Shown here: in pieces, positions 1,985 to 8,822 of the stretch
Layout of the letters: each line of letters opens with the position of its first letter
How positions within the stretch are numbered: the stretch's first letter is position 1
Notes under the pieces: model-generated
Database searches by the model: none
Seen by the model: only the letters and a program-made list of their open reading frames with translations
Told to the model about the DNA's origin: nothing
Origin: Giardia intestinalis
Lineage: Eukaryota
Length of the DNA stretch: 64,000 nucleotides
Strand: one strand, 5' to 3'
Assembly (NCBI GenBank): GCA_000002435.2
Contig: CM018792.1
Program-made: the position numbers and the translations under genes

Positions 1985-2017
1985 TCTTTAATTTTATCTC
2001 AAGACTTCCTGCTTCCG

Positions 2018-4477
2018 ATGCCCATAGACGTATCGGATTCAGATGGTTTAGGAGAATTTCTTCAGATTGAGCAGATGGTGTCAGGGGAAGACCCCGATGT
2101 GCTTCGAAAGTTCGCTAGAGACTTTGCAAAAGAATCACCCCCTCCACACAAGCTGCGGCACGATCTCACAGGGAGCTGTATAGATATTTCAGACGATACT
2201 GACTTGGACGCAAATCCATATCCATTAGATGGACTGTATACCGCAGAAGGTGCCCCGCGACAACAGCGAATTCTCACAAGACATAACCTATTATCAGAGC
2301 GCCCACAGGTCGGCGAATCTCAAAGTTATGACTTCGAAAATGGGTATTCTCCTGGACCTGATTCCAGACTTGCCCATTCAGCTTTGGGAGCAACAGTGGA
2401 GCAAGATTTTCTGGCAGACCTTGACGTCGAGGACGATATTATATCTGTTGACCCGCATATTGAGAATGATACTGATGCCAAGGCACACATGGACAACGCC
2501 GCTAAGTTCTTATCCGATAGCCATTATCAAAGTGCTCCAGACTTTGGGGAAACATATACCCATAATCGAGAAGATTTACTTAGCAATTCCTACTTCCAGG
2601 CTGTAGAGAGACAATCGGATAATTATGCAGCAGTAAAGGACCCGCACTCAAGCCATGATAATTGTGAAGAAAGTGAGGATTTAGAGTCCAAGTTTCATGC
2701 ATCCATTAGGAAAAATAGCTTAGCGGGAATTGAAACAGACCTTGCCTCTGTTGATGAAGAAGGTGTCTCCACTGGAACGGTAGTTCACCTACCTAAATTT
2801 CTTACTCTAGAATCAGTGGAGAATAGCAACACAATAGTCCGCATGAAGTCAAACTCCACTGGGATTAGTCGTTTCTTAGAGGCTGATGATGTCAGAAAGC
2901 AGTCGGAGGTCCCTGACGGGCCTGCAGATTTTAATGCAGCTCGCGACCAGAGTGCACCTACGTCTGTCCAGAGTCAACAACGACAGCAACAAATTGCTCT
3001 TCCCCCAGCCAGTGCAGATGACCGCATTGACGAACAGCTTCGATTGATGGAGAGGGAAATCAACAAGTTAACAGATATGCAAAAGGAGGTCGACGAGTCC
3101 TTGAAAAAGAACGCCGCAGAGCATACTGAACGAATGCGTAAGCTAGAGGCAGACAAGGCGGAATTTGACAGAATCAGGAAGGAGGAATGGGCAAAGATAA
3201 AGAAGGAGAAACAACAACTAGACGACCGCCGAACGGCTTTTAAAGATAAAGATAGCAAATTGAAAGAGCTTACAGCAGAATTAGAGAAGCACAAGACCAG
3301 CAATCAGAAGTTAAGGGAGGATATGCGCCGCAAAGACAACAACTCGCGGCTAACTTCAGAACAATTGCGCTCAAAAATCGACACTCTTACAGAGGAAAAT
3401 AACAATTTAAAGAAGCGGTTGGAACTGAGTGATAAGGCAGCTATTGAAATGCGCCAGAAGATTCTTAACTTGGAAAAGCTGAATAAAATGCTTCAGATTC
3501 AAGCTCGTTCTGATACTTCTGATAGAGAACCGTCTTCTAGAGCTATGAATTCCCCACCAAGACGTCAAGGTCCAGCTGCAGCTCCGCTAAATGTCCATGT
3601 GAGTGACACGGAGCAAGAGAATGACTCCATGGTCACTGTCAATAAGCCACTGAGGGCAGACATACCTAATAAAACTCTCTCTAACATAACAAGTAGTCCT
3701 GGAAGAAACCTTAGCCAGACGCTGAACCACGATTGGCGGGGCCAAATTACAAAGGGTCGGCCAATCAGCGCTGATATAGATTCCATAAGTCCTAAAAGGA
3801 ACCCTGCACACCTTAGTGCAACGGCTCGCCCGGGATCCTCGCACGTATCATTTAAGGAACAGGTATCCTCATCAATTCAACAGCCCAGACAGCCTATCGC
3901 ACTACCGAAGGCAACCGTGGGGGCGCCTTCCAGACAATCGCTTTCTATGCACGCACCAGAGAACGATGAGGTTCTCAAATTACTGCCGTACAGCACCCCG
4001 GATTTGTTCTTCCGACAATTTAACGACAGTGTCCTGGCTTACGTGAAGGATGCTCAAATACTAGAGCAGCATACAAAGAATCAACGTGTGGATAAAGTGC
4101 TTTCCACTGGCGCTACGCTTACCGAATTTGATAATGGAACAATGAAGCTACAGATACCGCACAGAGGAGAGATAAACATCAAGTTTCAAAATAATGACCT
4201 GAAGCAGCTACACAGCGATGGCAAGATAGTCTATTTTTACCATGAAAAAGGTATTCTAATGACTACAATCCCAGTGGTTCTTATAAATCCATCTGCTGCA
4301 ATCAGCAAGGACGAACGCATCAGTGTGTATAGATTCAGCTCAGGGCAGATTGAGAAGCACTATGCTGACAATCGCAAGGAGGTTTACTACCCAGATGGGT
4401 CTAAGAAGTATGTCGCAGCTGATGGATCTGAGCATTCTATTCTAGCTGACGGCACTGAGAGTCACTACACTCCTTAG
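2018..4477 (+). CDS. CPAP/SAS-4 (CENPJ)-like centriole/basal-body protein with central coiled coil and C-terminal TCP10 G-box domain
   Basis: The ORF-track start at 1952 is TTG. The first in-frame ATG is at 2018 ([10 protein letters not shown]). The C-terminus carries G-box repeats: [10 protein letters not shown] ... [42 protein letters not shown]. This closely matches the human CPAP G-box ([23 protein letters not shown]...FPDGT...). Residues about 340-520 are a K/E/R/L-rich coiled coil. Confidence 0.8.
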   Translation: [819 protein letters not shown]

Positions 4478-4489
4478 AAGTCTATTGTG

Positions 4490-5284
4490 CTACTCTATGA
4501 CTGTGTTAACTCGCTGATGACAGCGATTGCGTACTTGTACCATTTGGCTAGGCGATCGTCTGATCACACGTTCCGAATCTAGTCCATACTCTTGCGCAAA
4601 GCTGTATAGAGAGCATTCCCCAGGGAGGATTGGAGGCTTGTAGTCTTTATCATCTGATGCGTGTGCAGGGACTGGTGGGCATAGCGTGATGGCGCCCATA
4701 AATGCGACGCGTTGGTGCACTACCGAAGGACTCTGCACAAACTGCGCGACTGTCTTGTAAATAGCTGAAAGGCTGGTTGAGGTGGCATCTCTGTCAAGTG
4801 CCTTCCCTCTGAGTACCCATAAGGATGTGGTGTAGGAGATAAAGCTGTCCAGCAGGTGGCCGATCACATGCTGAAGATCTGGAAACCTGAGCTTTAGCCG
4901 CTCTCCGATGACTAACAATGAAGCAACTTGCATGTCAAGTACTTCTATTTGCTTGCAAGTAACTATCGACGGATAGGTGTCTGCTGCAGCTTCTGTGACA
5001 TCCTCCATGATGCATCGGCTTTGAACAGCCTGAACCAAACTGCTCCAAAGTGGCGCATGCTTGATCTTGGAGATGTGTGGAGCACCCTTAAGCCGTGGTT
5101 CGGAGAGAGCTACATGCAAGGTACCCTTAGCTTGCTTTCCAGTAGGGAACCAATCTGGATCATTTCCCTCCTGACGATCTTCCTTCTCTCGCTTAGCTGC
5201 TTCATCTAGAGAGTAGGTTCCATAGTATCTAAAGATCAATCTGCCAAGGAAGCTAGAAGGATCCAACTCGAAAGAGCTATCCAT
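4490..5284 (-). CDS. hypothetical protein
   Basis: The ORF-track start at 5323 is TTG. The first ATG gives MDSSFELDPSSFLGRL... (264 aa). No recognised domain. The gene fills the gap between flanking genes exactly. Confidence 0.45.
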   Translation of the reverse strand: MDSSFELDPSSFLGRLIFRYYGTYSLDEAAKREKEDRQEGNDPDWFPTGKQAKGTLHVALSEPRLKGAPHISKIKHAPLWSSLVQAVQSRCIMEDVTEAAADTYPSIVTCKQIEVLDMQVASLLVIGERLKLRFPDLQHVIGHLLDSFISYTTSLWVLRGKALDRDATSTSLSAIYKTVAQFVQSPSVVHQRVAFMGAITLCPPVPAHASDDKDYKPPILPGECSLYSFAQEYGLDSERVIRRSPSQMVQVRNRCHQRVNTVIE

Positions 5285-5325
5285 CTGATTTCTTTGGCAA
5301 AAGCACAGGGCCGCGCCCAACAAAT

Positions 5326-6546
5326 TTACTGTGATTCTCCACCTTCCCCATCAGCTAGAGGAAGAGTGTCGTAGCAGGACTGGCGAATAATTCCAACAAC
5401 TTCGGGCACTGTTATCGGCCAGGGGTGCATCTTATTCTTTCCGCTTGCAAATAGAGAAATTGCATAGTCCATTACTTCTTCCTCGTCATAAAGAGTGCGG
5501 CGACCCTCCACATCTGCGCAAATGACCTGCTCAACCATATCTTTGAACTCCTCATAACTGTCCATTTGGAATGCAGAAAGAATCTTCTCTAGCGTCTTTT
5601 CGAAGCGCTGATCGTCATGTGTCTCCGAGTGCTGCTTACATATATTCAGATACGCTATCAAGAAGATGGCACAGGCCTTCCCGTGTGGAACACCCTTGAA
5701 ATAGGTTATCTTGTACGAAAGACCGTGTGCAATGGAGGTGCCTCCAATTGTAATGGCTATACCAGCGTAGCAAGAGGCAAGCGTCATCTCATCGCGAAAC
5801 TCTGTCATCTCCGGGTCTGTTAAGTCCGTAAATGTTGTCTTCATGATCGCCGGCTTCAAGTAGAAATGCCAGCAGATCTGAAGATGCTTAAGGCTCTCAA
5901 CAGATGCTTTAACAGAGAGCTCAGTTGTTTTAACCGTAAGCATAGATTCAACTGCATGACACAGGATGTCCAGGAACATGCTAAGCGTTTGAGATGTCGG
6001 CAGATACAGTTGATAGCAAGGGTCGACCAGCGAGATCTTCGGAAATACGAGGTTAGGAATGCTGATTTTAGTTTGCTTAATGTGGTCGGTCAAAATGGCA
6101 TAGGGCGTTACTTCAGAGGCTGTGCCTGCTGCCGTGCTAATGCATATCACATCCTTTGGTGACTCAGAGATTGCCACCTTGATGCCCTCCTTGTTGACTA
6201 GATATACAGCAATGGCTTTTGCCGCATCCATAGCGGAGCCCCCTCCCAGCCCAATGACAAAGTCCACCTGCTTACCAGACACCTGTCTGGCTGCCTTTGT
6301 GACGGTCACTGTACTAGGGTTCGGCTCAACCTCATTGAAAAGATAACTTTCGATCTCGTGGCTGGCTAATATGTCCTTTAGCTTGCTCAACGAGTGGTTT
6401 GCCTGGGATGAAGTACTTCCTGTGACCACAAGAGCCTTCTTGCCTGCATACGACGCAAAGATACTTGCATGTTTCTCAAGCACGTCGCGATCGATATAAA
6501 TTGGATGCCTGATCACATCGGCAAAGGCACTCAGGTCGAGGGGCAT
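5326..6546 (-). CDS. iron-containing (group III) alcohol dehydrogenase family protein
   Basis: GGGSxxDxAK motif (IGLGGGSAMDAAKAIAVY). Metal-binding His pattern IAHGLSYKITYFKGVPHGKACAIFL. The ORF-track start at 6657 is GTG. The ATG at 6544-6546 (MPLDLSAF...) sits directly after TTTTAAAAATG and leaves about 37 aa before ALVVTG, as in FucO-type enzymes. Alternative ATG at 6652-6654 overlaps the upstream stop by 1 nt. Confidence 0.75.
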   Translation of the reverse strand: MPLDLSAFADVIRHPIYIDRDVLEKHASIFASYAGKKALVVTGSTSSQANHSLSKLKDILASHEIESYLFNEVEPNPSTVTVTKAARQVSGKQVDFVIGLGGGSAMDAAKAIAVYLVNKEGIKVAISESPKDVICISTAAGTASEVTPYAILTDHIKQTKISIPNLVFPKISLVDPCYQLYLPTSQTLSMFLDILCHAVESMLTVKTTELSVKASVESLKHLQICWHFYLKPAIMKTTFTDLTDPEMTEFRDEMTLASCYAGIAITIGGTSIAHGLSYKITYFKGVPHGKACAIFLIAYLNICKQHSETHDDQRFEKTLEKILSAFQMDSYEEFKDMVEQVICADVEGRRTLYDEEEVMDYAISLFASGKNKMHPWPITVPEVVGIIRQSCYDTLPLADGEGGESQ

Positions 6547-6554
6547 TTTTAAAA
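6547..6554 (-). promoter_or_regulatory. AT-rich initiator TTTTAAAA directly abutting the ATG of the Fe-ADH gene
   Basis: Minus strand reads AATCTAATTTTAAAAATGCCC. Short AT-rich initiators immediately upstream of ATG are the known Giardia core promoter architecture. Confidence 0.5.
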
Positions 6555-6653
6555 TTAGATTTCTCAAGGACACCGAGTCGCTTTGTTGCGACCTCATATC
6601 TGAGAGTACGGACCAGGTCCATTTACTAGGGAGCTGGTAGCTATGAAAAAACA

Positions 6654-8822
6654 TCACATTAGTCCGATTCGTGAGCTCACTATTGAAGAATTGCTAGAGA
6701 GTTTTGGAGGCATGTTCACCTTATTAGTCTTTTTCTTACATACAAACCACCAGACAAGAAACCCTATTACGCCTGCTATTGCCAATATTGCGATAGTAAC
6801 CCCTACTGCGATACCTGTTGCATTAGATCGAGACCCTGTCTCATTCTGAGGTTGGGTGCTATACTCAAGGCAATGAACAGGGCCATGTCCAGTGGACGGA
6901 GCCTTGCACTTGGTGCAGTTGGGAACCCCCATAATGAGAGAGCCACTGTCCGTTGAATCGCACTTAAAGCAGTACCTATTGTTGACAATAGCATAGGTTG
7001 ATTGACAGCTGGTACAGTAAAGATCAGAATTACAGCTCATACACCCTTCGCCGCAATGAATGCATTTCCGGGTCTGTGTGTTTCCAATGTAAGGACCAAG
7101 AGTCGCGCAATCGGATACACAGGATCCGTCGGGTGCTAGAAAGAAGTTCTCCTGACAGCGATCACACGTTGACGGATCTGTCTGGCAAAGCTCGCAATTT
7201 TTCATTGAGCATGAAGTTGAAGAGATGCAGTGAACCTGATTAAAATTGGGAACCATTCCGGTAGTACAAGCACTACATTTTAACTCAGTCGTCGTGTAAC
7301 CGCCTTTGTAACAGCGAATGCAGTTTGGTATCCCTGTAAAGGTACTGCCAGACTGGGTAGATGAGCAAGCAATGCAGTTTCCCACTGATCCTGGAACATA
7401 CTGTTCCGGGACACAGTCTGTACACTGGTTTTCTCCAGGGCCTACACAAGCCCTACAGCTGGAATGGCACTTCTCGCAGGCACCAGTAGCACTGTCTCCA
7501 TAGTAGTGATTGTCATCACTGTTCTGAGTGCTGCAGTTACTCACACACGTTTTATTATCAAGAGCAAGATAGGTGCGCATGTGGCACACAGCACACCTTG
7601 TCGTATCCGTAGTGTTGCACGTTTTGCATGCAAGGATGCTACAGTCACCCTCGGGAGGTCCAGGCGGCGTAACAGCATTGCAGTGATTATTTTGAGGAAC
7701 CGATCCATCAGAGCATTTCGTACAAGTTAATGTGGATTGCGCATATGAACACTCCACACAGTTTGCAATACCCTGTCTAGCTGTATCGCTACATGAAACG
7801 CATGCTTGCATATCACTCGCAGTAGGATTGGTGAACAGACCAGATGCTGTGCTTGTGTTACACTGCAGGCATCTGCCACCGACATCCACATCTCCAGAGC
7901 AGATGGACCTAGCCAGAGTGGAGTACCTGTGATAGCAGCCTCCATAGTGGTAAACAAACTTCTTCTCAGCACACTGTGTACACCGTCCACCACTACATGT
8001 GCACATAAGGTTAAAGTCACTACAATCACCGTCTATAATCGCTAAACCGGTGTTCTTACATTGCTTGCAGCATATAGTATCAGCTACGTGAATCTGATTG
8101 GATACTTCACAGATTTTGGGGGCATAATTTCCGTTGGCCAAAAGACACGTGGATGCAAACTGCAGAAAGCCTGCTCCACAACGGTTACAATATGTAGATC
8201 CAGACGACGTAGAATGCACACACCCCGAAAGGGCATCCTCTACGCCTCCGATGGGAACACACTTGTTGTCTATGGCTACTTTGTCTCTGTCAGCGCAGCC
8301 ATGACAGATGACCACAAAACCGCCTGTGCTGCCATCGTCTGGAATTGCCGTGCACAGGTTGCACCCGGAAGTACCATCTGACTCAAAGCATGCAATGCAA
8401 GACTGAGTTGTGGAGGATTTCTTCGGATTATCAGTATATCCATCTTGGTTGCACTGAGTACAATAACCGTCAACCAGTTGCTCATTCTCATCATCAACAA
8501 AGTCACATACTAGACTTCCAGCGCTGTCCGTGCTGATGTTGAAGCAGCTACCGTAATGGAGAAAATAACCTTTAGTACATCTAGTGCATCCTGCTGCCGA
8601 ACAAACGTTTCCTTGTGCGTCATTTGCAGATACACATCTACCGTTTATAGGAACCTTCTCTGTTGCACATTTAGAACAGTATTTGAGATCATTTATAGAG
8701 ATTGTACAAGAGCCAGACACACCACCGCAGTCACTATCAGATGTGCATCCGGCAACAATAGAGGCCTTAATAATTACTGTAACTAGAATCATGGCTAGGG
8801 ATGTGTGCAAAGAAGTCATCAT
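6654..8822 (-). CDS. high-cysteine membrane protein (HCMP; VSP-like extracellular CXXC-rich domain, TM anchor, extended cytoplasmic tail)
   Basis: 722 aa with true ATG ATG at 8817-8822 after CAAAAATTTAAAGATTAA. N-terminal signal peptide MMTSLHTSLAMILVTVIIKASIVAG. Dozens of CxxC/CxC motifs and GGCY (HYGGCYHRY). C-terminal TM IAVGVTIAILAIAGVIGFLVWWFVCKKK followed by a roughly 40-aa tail rather than CRGKA. Confidence 0.8.
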   Translation of the reverse strand: MMTSLHTSLAMILVTVIIKASIVAGCTSDSDCGGVSGSCTISINDLKYCSKCATEKVPINGRCVSANDAQGNVCSAAGCTRCTKGYFLHYGSCFNISTDSAGSLVCDFVDDENEQLVDGYCTQCNQDGYTDNPKKSSTTQSCIACFESDGTSGCNLCTAIPDDGSTGGFVVICHGCADRDKVAIDNKCVPIGGVEDALSGCVHSTSSGSTYCNRCGAGFLQFASTCLLANGNYAPKICEVSNQIHVADTICCKQCKNTGLAIIDGDCSDFNLMCTCSGGRCTQCAEKKFVYHYGGCYHRYSTLARSICSGDVDVGGRCLQCNTSTASGLFTNPTASDMQACVSCSDTARQGIANCVECSYAQSTLTCTKCSDGSVPQNNHCNAVTPPGPPEGDCSILACKTCNTTDTTRCAVCHMRTYLALDNKTCVSNCSTQNSDDNHYYGDSATGACEKCHSSCRACVGPGENQCTDCVPEQYVPGSVGNCIACSSTQSGSTFTGIPNCIRCYKGGYTTTELKCSACTTGMVPNFNQVHCISSTSCSMKNCELCQTDPSTCDRCQENFFLAPDGSCVSDCATLGPYIGNTQTRKCIHCGEGCMSCNSDLYCTSCQSTYAIVNNRYCFKCDSTDSGSLIMGVPNCTKCKAPSTGHGPVHCLEYSTQPQNETGSRSNATGIAVGVTIAILAIAGVIGFLVWWFVCKKKTNKVNMPPKLSSNSSIVSSRIGLM

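Follow-up and report, generated by a model that had tools for sequence, protein, structure and literature searches.

Giardia intestinalis carries eight basal bodies, and the locus described here raises the question of which centriole-assembly factor it encodes and how much of that factor's known equipment has been kept. The window, meaning the whole stretch of DNA that was analysed, covers 64,000 nucleotides of contig CM018792.1 (assembly GCA_000002435.2). Near its beginning lies a gene that an inspection of the letters alone (hereafter the sequence-only reading) had proposed as a homologue of SAS-4/CPAP, which belongs to the core factors of centriole assembly and whose human gene is linked to microcephaly. 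The analysis reported below indicates that this gene is, with high confidence, the single G. intestinalis orthologue of SAS-4/CPAP/CENPJ, with an architecture of the SAS-4 type and a probable role in basal-body assembly. Much of this is already known: the gene is annotated, and both its homology and its localisation to basal bodies, the experiment that had been proposed, are published.

Coding region and database identity

The plus-strand open reading frame (ORF) extends from the ATG at 2018 to the TAG at 4475-4477 and encodes 819 amino acids. Its translation is letter-for-letter that of XP_001704897.1, KAE8304441.1 and UniProt A8BTK8, deposited as "T-complex protein-10" from strain WB C6. Both peptides quoted in the sequence-only reading are found in it, the one of 42 letters at residues 773-814 and the one of 27 letters at residues 375-401.

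The mechanical ORF call reaches further 5', to a TTG at 1952. The true start is likely the ATG at 2018, because this ATG is kept in two other G. intestinalis lineages and because the N-terminus of the G. muris protein aligns with it. The entry ESU36219.1 describes the same protein with 843 amino acids; it starts 24 codons 5' of ATG 2018 and runs through the intergenic spacer into the upstream coding sequence on the opposite strand. The conservation of ATG 2018 and of the G. muris N-terminus suggests that this longer form is an over-extended gene call.

Orthologues display 90% identity in assemblage E (P15) and ~80% in other assemblage-level lineages, and that of G. muris 32% or 42%, depending on whether the best local BLASTP alignment or the MAFFT alignment is considered. 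No paralogue was seen among the homologue searches, including a phmmer scan of 1.84 billion representative proteins, and the protein is apparently single copy.

Kinship with CPAP/SAS-4 by sequence and fold

A search for the Pfam family PF07202 (Tcp10_C), named beforehand in the sequence-only reading as the test on which its proposal should stand or fall, gives a significant match (E=4.8e-9, 36.2 bits). The gathering cutoff of this family is 36 bits and its model is a short repeat of 35 residues. A score that clears the threshold by just 0.2 bits, obtained with such a short repeat model, could be explained if a repetitive, β-rich C-terminus without kinship to CPAP matched by chance or by composition.

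This explanation is contradicted by comparisons that cover the whole domain. When all PDB sequences are searched with phmmer, residues 687-815 match the zebrafish CPAP G-box (4bxp, 4bxr and 4ld1) at E=1e-16 over ~130 residues, while Drosophila Sas-4 is reached only at E~1e-3; a profile built from six Giardia sequences matches 4bxp_A at E=8.5e-18. The whole-protein profile search of the PDB returned G-box matches only, plus insignificant coiled-coil noise, and no other pieces of CPAP. A word-indexed search with the G-box alone gave just a fragment of the same protein, and an exhaustive scan of the 1.84 billion representative proteins was used instead: with residues 641-819 as query, phmmer finds 869 proteins at E<=1e-3, of which 199 are at E<=1e-10. 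Only some of these homologues were looked up by name, and all those belong to the CPAP/CENPJ or T-complex-10 family: "T-complex protein-10" in Hexamita and Kipferlia, "centrosomal P4.1-associated protein" in a bat and "centromere protein J" in Pelomyxa.

The AlphaFold2 model of residues 641-819, calculated with a 17-sequence alignment, has a mean predicted local distance difference test score (pLDDT) of 94.5 and a predicted template modelling (pTM) score of 0.87, and exhibits one helix followed by 14 β-strands. Foldseek comparison of this model with the PDB places CPAP/Sas-4 TCP10/G-box structures in all of the top 11 positions, with template modelling (TM) scores of 0.46-0.62; unrelated folds come next, at TM ~0.2. 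The matches to zebrafish CPAP superimpose with a root mean square deviation of 1.6-3.1 Å over 119-134 columns. In addition, 11 columns are invariant across the 17 diverse sequences aligned. A chance or compositional resemblance is refuted by the 4bxp match, the scan of representative proteins and the Foldseek result, and its probability is negligible.

The deposited name of the gene, together with a sole Pfam match called Tcp10_C, would rather designate it as an orthologue of mammalian TCP10 (t-complex protein 10) than of CPAP. To our knowledge, TCP10 is found in mammals only and is a paralogue of the C-terminal part of CPAP. The Giardia protein has the Tcp10_C repeat in common with TCP10/TCP10L, and it is from this Pfam domain that its database name comes; no evidence of orthology goes with it. 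Every named best match is CPAP, CENPJ or Sas-4, the homology reaches into the CPAP coiled coil (see below), and the gene has already been equated with Sas-4/CENPJ (PMC4931700). Orthology with TCP10 is therefore considered extremely improbable. The CPAP/SAS-4 homology claimed by the sequence-only reading is borne out by the Pfam match, the 4bxp match, the fold matches and the collinear coiled coil.

The core motif and the STIL-contact face

The 42-residue core motif pointed out by the sequence-only reading shares 25 of 42 residues with CPAP from the bat (P0052), the first nine being all identical. This bat protein carries the exact human PN2-3 peptide of PDB 5itz and was taken as a stand-in for the human sequence; judged by it, the near-identical human motif that had been quoted is essentially right for mammals.

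In zebrafish CPAP, the residues touching the proline-rich peptide of STIL are F978, Y994, Y996, H1003, F1015 and E1021, the latter being the microcephaly glutamate, E1235 in human, and the interface spans the N-terminal half of the G-box sheet (PMC3824074). Mapped through the HMMER alignment to 4bxp and the MAFFT alignment, five of these six residues are identical in Giardia: they correspond to F723, Y739, Y741, F773 and E779, while H1003 is replaced by M748. Three of them (Y739, F773 and E779) are among the 11 invariant columns. Such a conserved face would be consistent with Giardia having a partner of the STIL/Ana2 type. Its aromatic residues may, however, also serve the stability of the sheet.

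Regions upstream of the G-box

From its N- to its C-terminus, the protein is predicted to be formed by a disordered acidic third harbouring two small conserved motifs, a helix of ~170 residues, a disordered Ser/Pro linker and a C-terminal G-box folded as a single-layer β-meander (Table 1). The same domain plan was given for CPAP by Hatzopoulos et al. 2013 (PMC3824074). Conservation between the Giardia lineages follows the same map as the predicted domains.

The full-length AlphaFold model, calculated with a 6-sequence alignment, predicts residues 333-501 as one unbroken helix of 169 residues with pLDDT values of 92-96, and a heptad pattern of hydrophobic residues is seen along it. The regions on both sides (residues 1-330 and 502-650) are modelled with low confidence and are presumably disordered. 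By BLASTP, the helix aligns collinearly with the coiled coil found ahead of the G-box in other family members, namely residues 930-1067 of bat CPAP (E=8e-6) and residues 733-877 of Pelomyxa CENPJ (E=3e-4). The sequence-only reading had seen an upstream coiled coil consistent with SAS-4 architecture, and the single predicted helix and its collinear alignment to CPAP agree with this view. The linker between the helix and the G-box is rich in serine (16%) and proline (11%), has a net charge of +7 and retains only 12% identity with that of G. muris.

The first conserved motif lies at the extreme N-terminus. Residues 1-46 form a conserved island, with 59% identity to G. muris compared to 9-23% in the flanking disordered parts, and the two helices predicted within it (residues 11-21 and 26-39) have low pLDDT. 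The motif is also found in Hexamita and in two further fornicate homologues (P0022 and P0026). Together with its RKFARDFA segment, it resembles a motif that occurs once, in the middle of the protein, in metazoan CPAPs, and similar motifs are present in the Pelomyxa and Mataza homologues. Against a hidden Markov model (HMM) of the metazoan motif it scores 8.2 bits, a value beaten by 1 of 2000 shuffled sequences, in a comparison that is partly circular as the training segments were chosen by a regular expression modelled on Giardia; the other fornicates reach just 2-4 bits. That the N-terminal motif may be homologous to the metazoan mid-protein motif is at this stage a weak lead.

The second motif (residues 251-290) displays 45% identity to G. 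muris, with G253-L262 and G282-L287 invariant. An assignment of residues 253-287 as a split, degenerate SAC motif was considered and rejected, as a PN2-3 HMM trained on 77 homologues did not support it.

Table 1. Features of the SAS-4/CPAP locus, with nucleotide positions numbered from the first letter of the window
Feature	Residues	Positions	Strand	Remarks
Membrane-protein gene, multi-pass, 571 amino acids		269..1984	-	Divergent neighbour; ATG 1982-1984; no Pfam family
Head-to-head intergenic spacer		1985..2017	.	33 bp; presumed shared bidirectional core promoter
SAS-4/CPAP coding sequence ("T-complex protein-10")	1-819	2018..4477	+	819 amino acids and TAG stop; identical to XP_001704897.1 / A8BTK8
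Acidic N-terminal motif	6-46	2033..2155	+	Conserved; two short predicted helices
Conserved patch (... GISRFL)	251-290	2768..2887	+	Within the otherwise disordered acidic N-terminal half
Central coiled-coil helix	333-501	3014..3520	+	AlphaFold, heptads, BLASTP to CPAP coiled coils
Ser/Pro-rich basic linker, predicted disordered	502-647	3521..3958	+	pLDDT <50
Pre-G-box helix	661-677	3998..4048	+	pLDDT 94-97; model residues 21-36
G-box / TCP10_C	681-817	4058..4468	+	14 predicted antiparallel β-strands; PF07202, 4bxp, AlphaFold, Foldseek
13-residue G-box insertion	752-764	4271..4309	+	Gap in the HMMER alignment to zebrafish 4bxp and in the MAFFT alignment
Core motif	773-814	4334..4459	+	Holds F773 and E779, i.e., human F1229 and E1235 (microcephaly, MCPH, residue)

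Peculiarities of the G-box and the PN2-3 module

The Giardia G-box ends at a point where metazoan CPAPs run on for ~65 further residues. In the 17-sequence alignment, Hexamita, Kipferlia and a number of further homologues from outside the metazoans end at the same point. With this shorter G-box, the ruler proposed to be formed by an 8-nm head-to-tail fibril may not apply.

Two other features set this domain apart. The 13-residue insertion, modelled with a short helical turn, is common to Giardia, G. muris and P0022; P0026 exhibits a longer insertion, and Hexamita and Kipferlia have none. The helix preceding the sheet belongs to a segment that is conserved, among the 17 sequences aligned, only in the fornicates (Giardia, Hexamita, Kipferlia, P0022 and P0026). 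As the zebrafish G-box is described as being without a capping element, this helix may cover part of the sheet.

The PN2-3 module comprises a LID helix and the SAC motif FLKRGxGLxRF; it is widespread, yet not family-defining in comparative studies. The human PN2-3 motif was verified in PDB chains 5itz, 5eib and 7q1f, and motifs of the FL[KR][KR]G type are present in most non-fornicate homologues. An HMM of 77 non-fornicate segments was scored on Giardia, G. muris, Hexamita, P0022 and P0026: this tubulin-binding module is undetected, the scores being negative and below those of the best shuffled controls. The handling of tubulin by the Giardia protein may hence differ from that of CPAP, or be absent.

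Localisation and proposed role

The G. intestinalis gene GL50803_13352 (Sas-4/CENPJ) has been assigned to all basal bodies on the evidence of proteomics, immunofluorescence assays and GFP tagging (PMC4931700, Table 1). The gene described here is most likely GL50803_13352, since the name, the Pfam domain match and the apparent single copy lead to XP_001704897.1. By analogy with the work on CPAP/SAS-4, the central helix would form a parallel dimer, a strut linking the SAS-6/Bld10 cartwheel of the nascent basal body to its microtubule wall, and the G-box face carrying F723, Y739, Y741, F773 and E779 would bind a proline-rich motif in a partner of the STIL/Ana2 type. The protein would thereby be located at, and required for, the assembly of the eight basal bodies.

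Another scenario is that a G-box protein has been repurposed in Giardia to regulate or scaffold microtubule arrays in general outside the centrioles (median body, cytoplasmic axonemes, flagellar pockets), its presence at the basal bodies reflecting docking or transit instead of a structural part in duplication. The protein is also reported at the median body, the cytoplasmic posteriolateral axonemes and the ciliary pocket, and the review that compiles these data warns that basal-body proteins may merely dock there (PMC4931700). An undetected PN2-3 motif and a truncated G-box fit such a repurposed protein as well. However, over-expressed C-terminal GFP fusions often label extra microtubule structures, and the STIL-binding face is conserved. 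Moreover, the protein is apparently single copy, and CENPJ/SAS-4 is one of no more than 15 genes that all ciliated species have kept (Dobbelaere et al. 2023, PMC10425847). Repurposing is thus judged unlikely, and a SAS-4 orthologue acting in basal-body assembly is preferred.

Besides the additional locations, a series of points weighs against this preferred assignment. The Pfam gathering threshold is exceeded by just 0.2 bits, 14 G-box strands are predicted compared to 17 in the zebrafish crystal, and the PN2-3 module escapes detection in the five fornicate proteins scored. Neither an explicit cross-reference of GL50803_13352 to XP_001704897.1/A8BTK8 nor loss-of-function (knock-down) data for Giardia were found in the literature searched. 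We know of no STIL/Ana2 partner in Giardia, no search for one having been made. The narrow Pfam margin is offset by the 4bxp match at E=1e-16, the confident fold model and the collinear coiled coil.

Comparison with known systems

The Giardia protein resembles vertebrate CPAP/CENPJ (zebrafish 4bxp, 4bxr and 4ld1) in its single-sheet C-terminal G-box (30% identity), in the F, Y, Y, F and E contacts to STIL with the MCPH glutamate among them, in the long collinear coiled coil and the disordered linker located upstream of the G-box, and in its reported localisation at centrioles or basal bodies. It is shorter, however, with 819 amino acids instead of ~1340. Its G-box harbours the 13-residue insertion, is preceded by a helix, counts 14 strands and not 17, and has a methionine in place of H1003; PN2-3 is undetectable. 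The candidate DEFLxxEQ motif is located at the extreme N-terminus and lacks the SFSSNSSF serine cluster, whereas the motif that it resembles stands in the middle of CPAP.

With Drosophila Sas-4 (4mpz and 4by2), the protein shares the G-box fold (Foldseek probability 1.00, TM 0.46-0.59) and the order of coiled coil and G-box, but identity is just 16-18% in the fold alignment and the sequence match, as mentioned above, is weak (E ~1e-3). The fly protein also retains the PN2-3 motif (F112; PMC4912634). The fornicate "T-complex protein-10" sequences of G. muris, Hexamita inflata and Kipferlia bialata have the same overall organisation, the short G-box end, the pre-G-box helix and the DEFLxLEQ motif, and no FLKRG. 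Differences from these proteins reside in the linkers, which cannot be aligned, and in the insertion, absent in Hexamita and Kipferlia.

The intergenic spacer and neighbouring genes

The sequence-only reading had described a 33-bp AT-rich promoter shared with the upstream membrane-protein gene. The length and coordinates of this spacer (1985-2017) are exact, while its AT-richness is only moderate: its GC content is 36%, compared to 50% for the window, and 9.6% of all 33-mers of the window are equally or more AT-rich. The AT-rich core TCTTTAATTTTATCT (1985-1999) abuts the ATG of the upstream gene and lies 19-33 nucleotides before the SAS-4 ATG; the 18 nucleotides directly preceding the latter are not AT-rich. 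A spacer of 33-34 bp is conserved in P15 and in another G. intestinalis lineage. Core promoters of Giardia are short and rich in AT, with an inherent ability to act in both directions, and typical intergenic spacers measure 30-177 bp (Teodorovic et al. 2007, PMC1885649). By analogy, a function of the spacer as shared bidirectional promoter is plausible and would be unremarkable for Giardia, transcription of SAS-4 presumably starting from the short AT-rich patch within it, as is usual in this organism.

In G. muris (CM016925.1, 3990-4005), the gene preceding SAS-4 on its strand encodes a NEK/ankyrin kinase, and the SAS-4 ATG follows the TAA of this gene after 1 nucleotide. The 571-residue membrane-protein gene is absent from the SAS-4 locus of this species, while synteny is kept in the G. 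intestinalis lineages; the ancestral arrangement in the genus was thus not head-to-head.

Downstream, a convergent ORF (4490-5323, minus strand) has its stop codon 12 bp from that of SAS-4 (4475-4477), so that the 3' untranslated regions must overlap. The canonical Giardia polyadenylation signal AGTRAAY was not found on the plus strand after the SAS-4 stop. On the minus strand, an AGTAAAC occurs at 4382-4388, within the SAS-4 coding region. Further along follow genes for an Fe-dependent alcohol dehydrogenase (Fe-ADH; 5326-6657, minus strand) and for a 722-residue cysteine-rich membrane protein of the VSP family (6654-8822, minus strand), both in keeping with a Giardia genome. The order kinase, membrane protein, SAS-4, ORF of 264-277 residues, Fe-ADH and VSP-like gene is kept in assemblage E and another lineage.

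At the other end of the window, from 35444 to 63548 (reaching to the window end), the minus strand carries ~15 head-to-tail ORFs of 455-653 amino acids with a period of ~1.8-1.95 kb. Most of them are followed by AGTGAAT, a polyadenylation-like heptamer, and both members sampled match the Pfam family VSP (PF03302). This array looks like a large tandem set of genes for cysteine-rich surface proteins of the VSP family.

Significance for centriole assembly

That SAS-4 occurs in a eukaryote as deeply divergent as Giardia, with its eight basal bodies, speaks for a centriole-assembly module of ancestral origin. This conclusion is already published: it is drawn by Carvalho-Santos 2010 and Hodges 2010 (both cited in PMC10425847) and by McInally & Dawson 2016. 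The new value of the present analysis is modest and resides in the comparison at the level of domains, which could help to direct experiments asking what activities of CPAP are universal indeed.

It is tentatively proposed, as a possible though rather doubtful extension, that the SAS-4 of fornicates (Giardia, Hexamita and Kipferlia) represents a natural minimal version of the protein. It would have kept only the dimerising coiled coil and that half of the G-box which binds STIL, and possess a lineage-specific helix cap; the tubulin-sequestering PN2-3 and the C-terminal third of the G-box would have been truly lost, and DEFLxLEQ would be an ancient CPAP motif moved to the N-terminus. If this were true, a nine-triplet basal body would need neither tubulin capping of the CPAP type nor the 8-nm ruler of the G-box fibril.

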